Positions 19,676-19,935 of a stretch of 64,000 nt of DNA are shown here, piece by piece. The translations under genes and the position numbers were made by a program. Below the pieces are notes generated by a model, which had not been told where the DNA came from, did no database searches, and saw only the letters and a list, made by a program, of their open reading frames with translations. Within the stretch, counting starts at the first letter, position 1. The number at the start of each line of letters is the position of its first letter. The stretch lies in NCBI RefSeq assembly GCF_030013595.1, contig NZ_CP122768.1; one strand, 5' to 3'. This DNA comes from Escherichia coli. GTDB lineage: Bacteria; Pseudomonadota; Gammaproteobacteria; Enterobacterales; Enterobacteriaceae.

Positions 19676-19705
19676 TTTGTAAACCGTCCGGCACTCAATC
19701 GCCAA

Positions 19706-19935
19706 AAAGAAAAAAGCCAGCAGATAATCACTGCTGGCGTGGCGATTAACACCAATACTCAGTCACACATGATGTCCGCAAATCAGTAGCCAGAATGACT
19801 CCCCTCCCACTGCATCAGTTCTTCAAGCATGGTTAATCGTTGTGGGACGCTTAACCAACGCAACCAGCACAACTTCGCTGTCGCGGTAAAATAGTGCTGA
19901 TAAAACTGACGCATGGGGCACCTCCTTGCTTCATC
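19706..19935 (-). ncRNA. sgrS: SgrS small RNA (glucose-phosphate stress), ends approximate
   Basis: 5' end GATGAAGCAAGG..., conserved seed-region string GTGTGACTGAGTATTGGTGT, 3' hairpin gccagcag/ctgctggc plus U-run at about 19705-19738; divergent from sgrR. Confidence 0.88.
19783..19914 (-). CDS. sgrT: SgrT, 43-aa peptide encoded within SgrS
   Basis: ATG at 19914; MRQFYQHYFTATAKLCWLRWLSVPQRLTMLEELMQWEGSHSGY; nested in sgrS. Confidence 0.85.
   Translation of the reverse strand: MRQFYQHYFTATAKLCWLRWLSVPQRLTMLEELMQWEGSHSGY

Follow-up and report, generated by a model that had tools for sequence, protein, structure and literature searches.

The window, a stretch of 64,000 nt of Escherichia coli DNA, contains two transcription units that converge on a short spacer. 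On the plus strand, leuABCD is preceded by the Leu leader (14801-14950) and ends with leuD (19070..19675; TAG stop at 19673-19675), which was found in the open reading frame list and in the RefSeq annotation of an identical genome and encodes a protein with 98.5% identity to K-12 LeuD (tblastn). On the minus strand lies the full-length gene of the small RNA SgrS (19709..19935), which matches Rfam family RF00534 at model positions 1-232 of 232 with 229.8 bits (E 2.1e-65; gathering score 37). Within the span of sgrS, SgrT is encoded by an intact open reading frame of 43 aa (19783..19914, minus strand), as seen in its translation and in the RefSeq annotation of the identical genome. The divergent sgrS/sgrR promoter region (19936..20002) differs from that of K-12 by one or two bases in the alignment, and the activator gene sgrR (20003..21661, plus strand), transcribed divergently from sgrS, is intact and 98% identical to the K-12 protein. 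The Rfam match, the RefSeq annotation and the SgrT translation thus agree with the preliminary description, in which the sgrR-sgrS-sgrT module had been regarded as kept. Its coordinates, a leuD stop at 19675 and a hairpin starting at about 19716, are likewise reproduced by the reading frame list and the terminator scan. The distance of about 30 bp that it gave between the leuD stop and the sgrS terminator corresponds to 33 nt up to the modelled sgrS 3' end at 19709 and to 40 nt up to the terminator hairpin.

The functional parts of SgrS are recognizable. The base-pairing (seed) region GUGUGACUGAGUAUUGGUGU (19749..19768, minus strand) is identical to that of K-12, both by pattern position and by alignment. 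It is followed by an intrinsic terminator (19704..19738, minus strand), identified by the terminator scan and by RNAfold, in which a hairpin (19716-19738) with an 8-bp GC-rich stem, GCCAGCAG/CUGCUGGC, and a 7-nt loop precedes the tail UUUUUUCUUUUU (19715-19704). Together with the trailing TTTTTTCTTT, this minus-strand hairpin is the only terminator-like site at this end of the region 19400-20100. That it might act as a bidirectional terminator and also serve leuD was considered; no terminator-like site was predicted on the plus strand after leuD, and no U-run lies behind the hairpin in that direction. With a near-identical promoter, an identical seed, a canonical terminator and an intact sgrT, the stress module looks functional; induction by SgrR under glucose-phosphate stress and dependence on Hfq, both traits of the SgrS family, may apply here too.

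The preliminary description had stated that setA, a sugar-efflux gene (its product is an MFS transporter) that neighbours sgrS in K-12, is missing here without a remnant. An alignment with K-12 had been named beforehand as a possible refutation. The gene order of an MG1655 derivative, sgrR, sgrS/sgrT, setA (1179 bp) and, in convergent orientation, leuD, places setA precisely at this junction. The window is collinear with 35 kb of K-12 at ~97.5% identity (BLAST), and the alignment is interrupted at the junction, where window positions 19669/19710 correspond to K-12 positions that are 1,262 bp apart. A tblastn search with K-12 SetA against the 64-kb window gave no match at E<=0.01, what aligned at the junction being noise (E>1), and blastn with the 1254-bp K-12 interval returned only chance 12-14-mers, all elsewhere than at the junction. 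The absence of setA between sgrS and leuD, with no remnant left in the window, is therefore confirmed.

Other differences from K-12 were noticed in the window. Between the sgrR stop and the TPP riboswitch ahead of thiBPQ (22701-22800, Rfam) lies a segment of ~1010 bp (21656-22665) that is absent in K-12 and IAI1 and contains a 189-aa open reading frame (21891-22460, minus strand), annotated by RefSeq in the identical genome and in IAI39 as the T3SS effector EspY2. Next to this segment, the 3' half of sgrR departs unusually far from K-12, with 90.8% DNA identity compared to 98.1% for the 5' half. Further along, polB (DNA polymerase II), which is uninterrupted at this place in K-12, is split by a 1329-bp IS10-like element (33877-35205) with the ends CTGATGAATCCCCTAATGATTTT... 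and ...GGGGATCTCTCAG, a 402-aa transposase reading frame (33984-35192) and a 9-bp target duplication CGCCTGGCG at 33868-33876 and 35206-35214. Near yabI/thiQ, a stretch of ~70 bp between aligned blocks (26081-26153) has no K-12 alignment, and an 82-bp element (31464-31545) is apparently single in the window and present as two tandem copies in K-12.

Over 23.8 kb, the window is 100% identical to two UK pig isolates, except for one extra insertion in their genomes, and the next-best genomes reach ~98.3% identity. These two genomes, HCP5S3_I2 (assembly GCF_056269925.1) and LCP30S3_I5, carry an IS2 (HCP5S3_I2 locus, position 6702 onward) where the window, at ~22701, keeps an intact TPP riboswitch upstream of thiB.

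Among 5,426 complete E. coli genomes, the locus was found in 5,399 with a 1.6-kb query across the junction. K-12 setA is present in 3,241 of the complete genomes, nearly always (3,228 genomes) at an identity of at least 99%, and the setA-less junction was detected in 2,157 with a 161-nt query centred on it, 2,143 of them with at least 80% query coverage. The two sets, ~60% and ~40%, add up to 5,398 of the 5,399 genomes with the locus. They thus partition the collection, with no sign that setA has moved elsewhere in the setA-less genomes, and this count across complete genomes argues against its presence elsewhere in the genome of this strain. A hidden copy at the same locus, lost in an assembly gap, which the preliminary description had considered, is ruled out by the same junction in 2,157 complete genomes. 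Scale and polarity were missing from that earlier reading: the absence of setA is the allele of ~40% of E. coli, is shared by other Escherichia species and is not a strain peculiarity. A recent strain-specific deletion, an assembly collapse or a relocation, for which nothing speaks beyond the bare comparison with K-12, is vanishingly improbable in view of the same junction in these 2,157 genomes and in four other Escherichia lineages, and of two independent assemblies that are 100% identical over 23.8 kb.

The distribution follows lineages. CFT073 and IAI39, according to their annotated loci, and ST131 EC958 and many O157:H7 strains, according to matches of the junction query, lack setA at this place, and K-12, REL606 and IAI1 possess it. 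With K-12 and REL606 assigned to phylogroup A, IAI1 to B1, CFT073 and ST131 to B2, IAI39 to F and O157:H7 to E, setA tracks the A/B1 clade of E. coli.

The two haplotypes differ not only in setA itself. Identity between K-12 and the window is 96-100% along leuC, leuD, the 5' part of sgrS and the 5' half of sgrR, compared to 79% over the last 76 nt of leuD and 74% (73.8%) over the 3' 107 nt of sgrS, the seed aside. The final ~76 nt of leuD form the left flank of the difference, with a sliding identity to K-12 of 0.86-0.62 past 19600. In the same 107 nt of sgrS, the window is 98% (98.1%) identical to CFT073 and IAI39 and thus belongs to the non-K-12 allele class. The divergence alters the C-terminus of LeuD (K-12 LeuD ends in ...AYEAKQPAFMN, and the final 11-residue stretch is not the same in the window), the last 12 residues of SgrT (…EELMQWEGSHSGY here versus …EGLMQWDDRNSES in K-12) and the sequence of the terminator. 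Compared to Citrobacter, the 3' part of sgrS is 84-88% identical in the setA-less form and 71-74% identical in the K-12 form. By these identities, the setA haplotype held by the A/B1 lineage is one with strongly diverged immediate flanks (74-79% versus 96-98% nearby).

Whether setA was lost or gained depends on its occurrence in related genera. An SgrS seed-pattern scan with one genome per species yielded 76 loci, which were then searched by tblastn with K-12 LeuD, SetA and SgrR. More than 30 of these loci, belonging to at least nine other genera, encode a SetA (75-89% amino acid identity to K-12) in the interval from sgrR/sgrS to leuD. These include Citrobacter werkmanii, C. youngae, C. koseri, C. 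amalonaticus, C. sedlakii, C. braakii, C. portucalensis, C. freundii and other Citrobacter, Salmonella enterica subsp. arizonae and diarizonae, Klebsiella, Raoultella and Enterobacter, and further Pluralibacter, Atlantibacter, Siccibacter and Superficieibacter; in Klebsiella and Raoultella, leuD is further off. The same place and orientation of setA across these genera indicates that, for the family, a locus with setA is the older state. The ratio of SetA to SgrR distances between K-12 and Salmonella or Citrobacter is 0.69-1.0, compared to 0.54-1.13 for Salmonella-Citrobacter pairs; K-12 SetA is hence within the expected range and at Escherichia depth. In a protein search with K-12 SetA, aimed at the nearest SetA outside E. 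coli and hence at a potential donor, the 120 matches listed were all near-identical E. coli entries, which are uninformative about a donor.

These data bear on a pure gain, according to which the setA-less arrangement would be the original state, setA would have been newly inserted in A/B1 and nothing would have been deleted here. Parsimony within E. coli and its sister species does favour absence as the older state, setA is listed among the genes 'acquired' by the E. coli AB1 sublineage (González-Alba et al., 2019, PMC6896753), and the gene is nearly invariant in E. coli, as seen in the 3,228 genomes above. Nevertheless, a pure gain is very unlikely, since the position and orientation shared with the other genera imply that setA predates Escherichia and since none of the sampled genera stands close to K-12 SetA as a donor. 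A/B1 strains may have regained setA, but this would have replaced a deletion allele and would not have been a first insertion.

Within Escherichia, the setA-less junction is common to E. albertii, E. whittamii, Escherichia sp. E1V33 and L008, a divergent genome labelled E. coli whose leuD is ~92% identical to that of the window. The extracted junctions of five lineages, aligned by eye, share the consensus ...ATGCGTTAG TTTGTA..CCG.CCGGC.CTCAATCGCC AAAAAGAAAAAAGCCAGCAG. The window shows the same succession of leuD stop, ~33-nt spacer (TTTGTA..CCG.CCGGC.CTCAATCGCC) and sgrS terminator, and its 33-nt spacer (19676..19708), which we regard as the scar of the setA deletion, is the same in E. albertii, E. 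whittamii, E1V33, L008 and IAI39. A single junction in all setA-less Escherichia points to one deletion event. Compared to the window, the setA-less species are 84-92% identical in the 3' end of leuD and 92-94% in the leuD body. The divergence of the flanks thus resembles that of the neighbouring genes, which favours vertical descent of an old deletion allele over a recent sweep. We are therefore largely confident that the window carries an inherited setA-less haplotype of sgrR-sgrS-leuD that goes back to one old deletion of an ancestral gene. The deletion would have occurred before or early in the Escherichia radiation and would then have been inherited vertically. Its timing within the genus is not fixed by the loci compared, as the seed-pattern scan yielded none from S. 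bongori, S. enterica subsp. enterica, E. fergusonii, E. marmotae or E. ruysiae.

Vertical descent is not the whole story. In the non-coli genome Escherichia sp. MOD1-EC7003 (L042, 1-2324), the N-terminus of SetA is 99% and the 3' part of sgrS 100% identical to K-12, and sgrR is only 94% identical. This pattern, read from the sequence, marks a setA segment that was recently exchanged between species and shows that it moves by recombination. One could therefore imagine an E. coli ancestor with setA, a deletion allele that arose in one Escherichia lineage and its spread by homologous recombination through the leuD and sgrS flanks; E. albertii, the cryptic clades and the B2/D/E/F E. coli would then have been recipients. 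The MOD1-EC7003 locus demonstrates that such haplotypes cross species borders, and between species the deletion allele keeps 94-98% identity in the 3' part of sgrS, slightly more than the neighbouring genes do. However, higher conservation is expected of a functional RNA, and the 3' end of leuD in the deletion allele differs by 8-16% between species, no less than the leuD body does, which does not resemble a recent sweep. Several inter-species transfers would also be needed, compared to a single re-acquisition in A/B1. This scenario is considered unlikely.

With an old deletion as the preferred reading, the presence of setA in K-12 and its relatives has to be accounted for. The most economical scenario combines an early loss in Escherichia with a setA haplotype that A/B1 strains obtained from a lineage that never lost the gene, the chances for this second step being roughly even. 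Taken as a whole, we hold it as a tentative proposal, somewhat short of an even chance, that setA was lost once and early in Escherichia and that K-12 and the other A/B1 strains re-acquired the gene secondarily by homologous replacement, in which an import of ~1.45 kb changed the C-terminus of SgrT and the terminator of SgrS, with antisense cross-talk between leuABCD and sgrS as a corollary. Equally tentative, and just below the balance point, is the extent of this import, which would take in the final ~75 nt of leuD at one end and the 3' ~105 nt of sgrS at the other and would stem from an unsampled lineage of roughly Escherichia depth.

Along with the setA coding sequence, the old deletion would have taken out the leader in front of it and, on the leuD side, most of the intergenic region with its hairpin. 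In outgroups and K-12, the leuD-setA interval contains a hairpin or a REP element, neither of which occurs in the setA-less spacer; its 33 nt contain neither a remnant of setA coding sequence nor a terminator hairpin for leuD. A mixed origin of the spacer is probable: the left part would come from the intergenic region between leuD and setA, and the right part, which resembles the sgrS-setA leader of C. koseri, from that leader. Local alignments of the 41-nt spacer with the intervals of outgroups and K-12 score 23-27, which is near noise, with the C. koseri leader as the only apparently meaningful match, so that the assignment is tentative and the deletion endpoints are approximate at the base level.

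A 10-bp inverted repeat surrounds the terminator in most setA-less haplotypes and is absent in K-12. RNAfold predicts that its arms, 19740..19749 between seed and terminator (5' arm) and 19695..19704 (3' arm), both on the minus strand, pair into an outer helix that encloses the terminator and its U-tail and that could form only in read-through RNA. The same outer helix is predicted for the window, L008, E. whittamii and E1V33, and contains a mismatch in E. albertii (four of the five folded lineages).

In a strain with this haplotype, the glucose-phosphate stress response would rely solely on SgrT and on base-pairing by SgrS, with no SetA for SgrR to induce. Transcripts that pass the sgrS terminator would be antisense to leuD and would no longer supply setA mRNA, and leu transcripts would conversely run antisense into sgrS, as leuABCD appears to lack a recognizable intrinsic terminator before it meets sgrS. 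If the early loss and the A/B1 re-import are true, the convergence of leuABCD and sgrS without a leu terminator would allow for a possible cross-talk between leucine biosynthesis and sugar-phosphate stress. The K-12 sgrS-setA operon, which serves as a model of the SgrR regulon and of read-through at a terminator, stands only for A/B1 E. coli. ST131, CFT073, O157:H7 and other Escherichia species have a glucose-phosphate stress response without SetA, with another SgrS 3' end and another SgrT C-terminus. The findings provide a context for extrapolating SgrS biology from K-12, and no new system or mechanism is revealed.

Several aspects of the locus have been described before. Co-transcription of sgrS and setA, as claimed in the preliminary description, is established for K-12, where read-through of a leaky sgrS terminator gives rise to setA mRNA (PMC9765468). 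For this operon, both PMC4021124 and PMC9765468 cite Sun and Vanderpool (2011). The literature describes the contribution of SetA to the stress response as modest and unresolved. The window shares with the K-12 operon sgrR, the sgrS promoter, the seed, sgrT and the place beside leuD. It differs from it by the lack of setA, which leaves an SgrR regulon without efflux pump and a terminator read-through without mRNA function, by a terminator tail of U6CU5 instead of U8, and by the absence of the K-12-specific hairpin over the sgrT ribosome-binding site (AAGGAGGUGCCCC versus AAGGGGGUGCCCC in K-12).

A comparative study distinguished two classes of E. coli sgrS alleles, K-12 versus CFT073/O157:H7, that are 88% identical, and showed setA in a synteny drawing of the sgrR-leuD interval (Horler and Vanderpool, 2009, PMC2760817). 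The identities in the 3' 107 nt of sgrS, 98% to CFT073/IAI39 and 74% to K-12, match this published overall value. The window shares the allele class of the CFT073/O157:H7 type, and setA is likewise absent beside leuD in CFT073 and IAI39. CFT073 differs in that an IS200C transposase gene resides in the short spacer between sgrS and leuD (L080 2078-2536, between sgrT and leuD), and O157:H7 in that the start codon of sgrT is lost (PMC2760817), whereas sgrT is intact in the window.

The presence/absence pattern in the 5,399 genomes is the same as that reported by González-Alba et al. (2019, PMC6896753), and the A/B1-restricted distribution of setA is thus an already published lineage polymorphism. 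Given the outgroup loci, the 'acquisition' by A/B1 is better called retention or re-acquisition of an ancestral gene. To this picture, the present analysis adds that setA is ancestral to the family at this locus, that the setA-less Escherichia share one deletion junction and that the flanks of the two haplotypes are strongly diverged.
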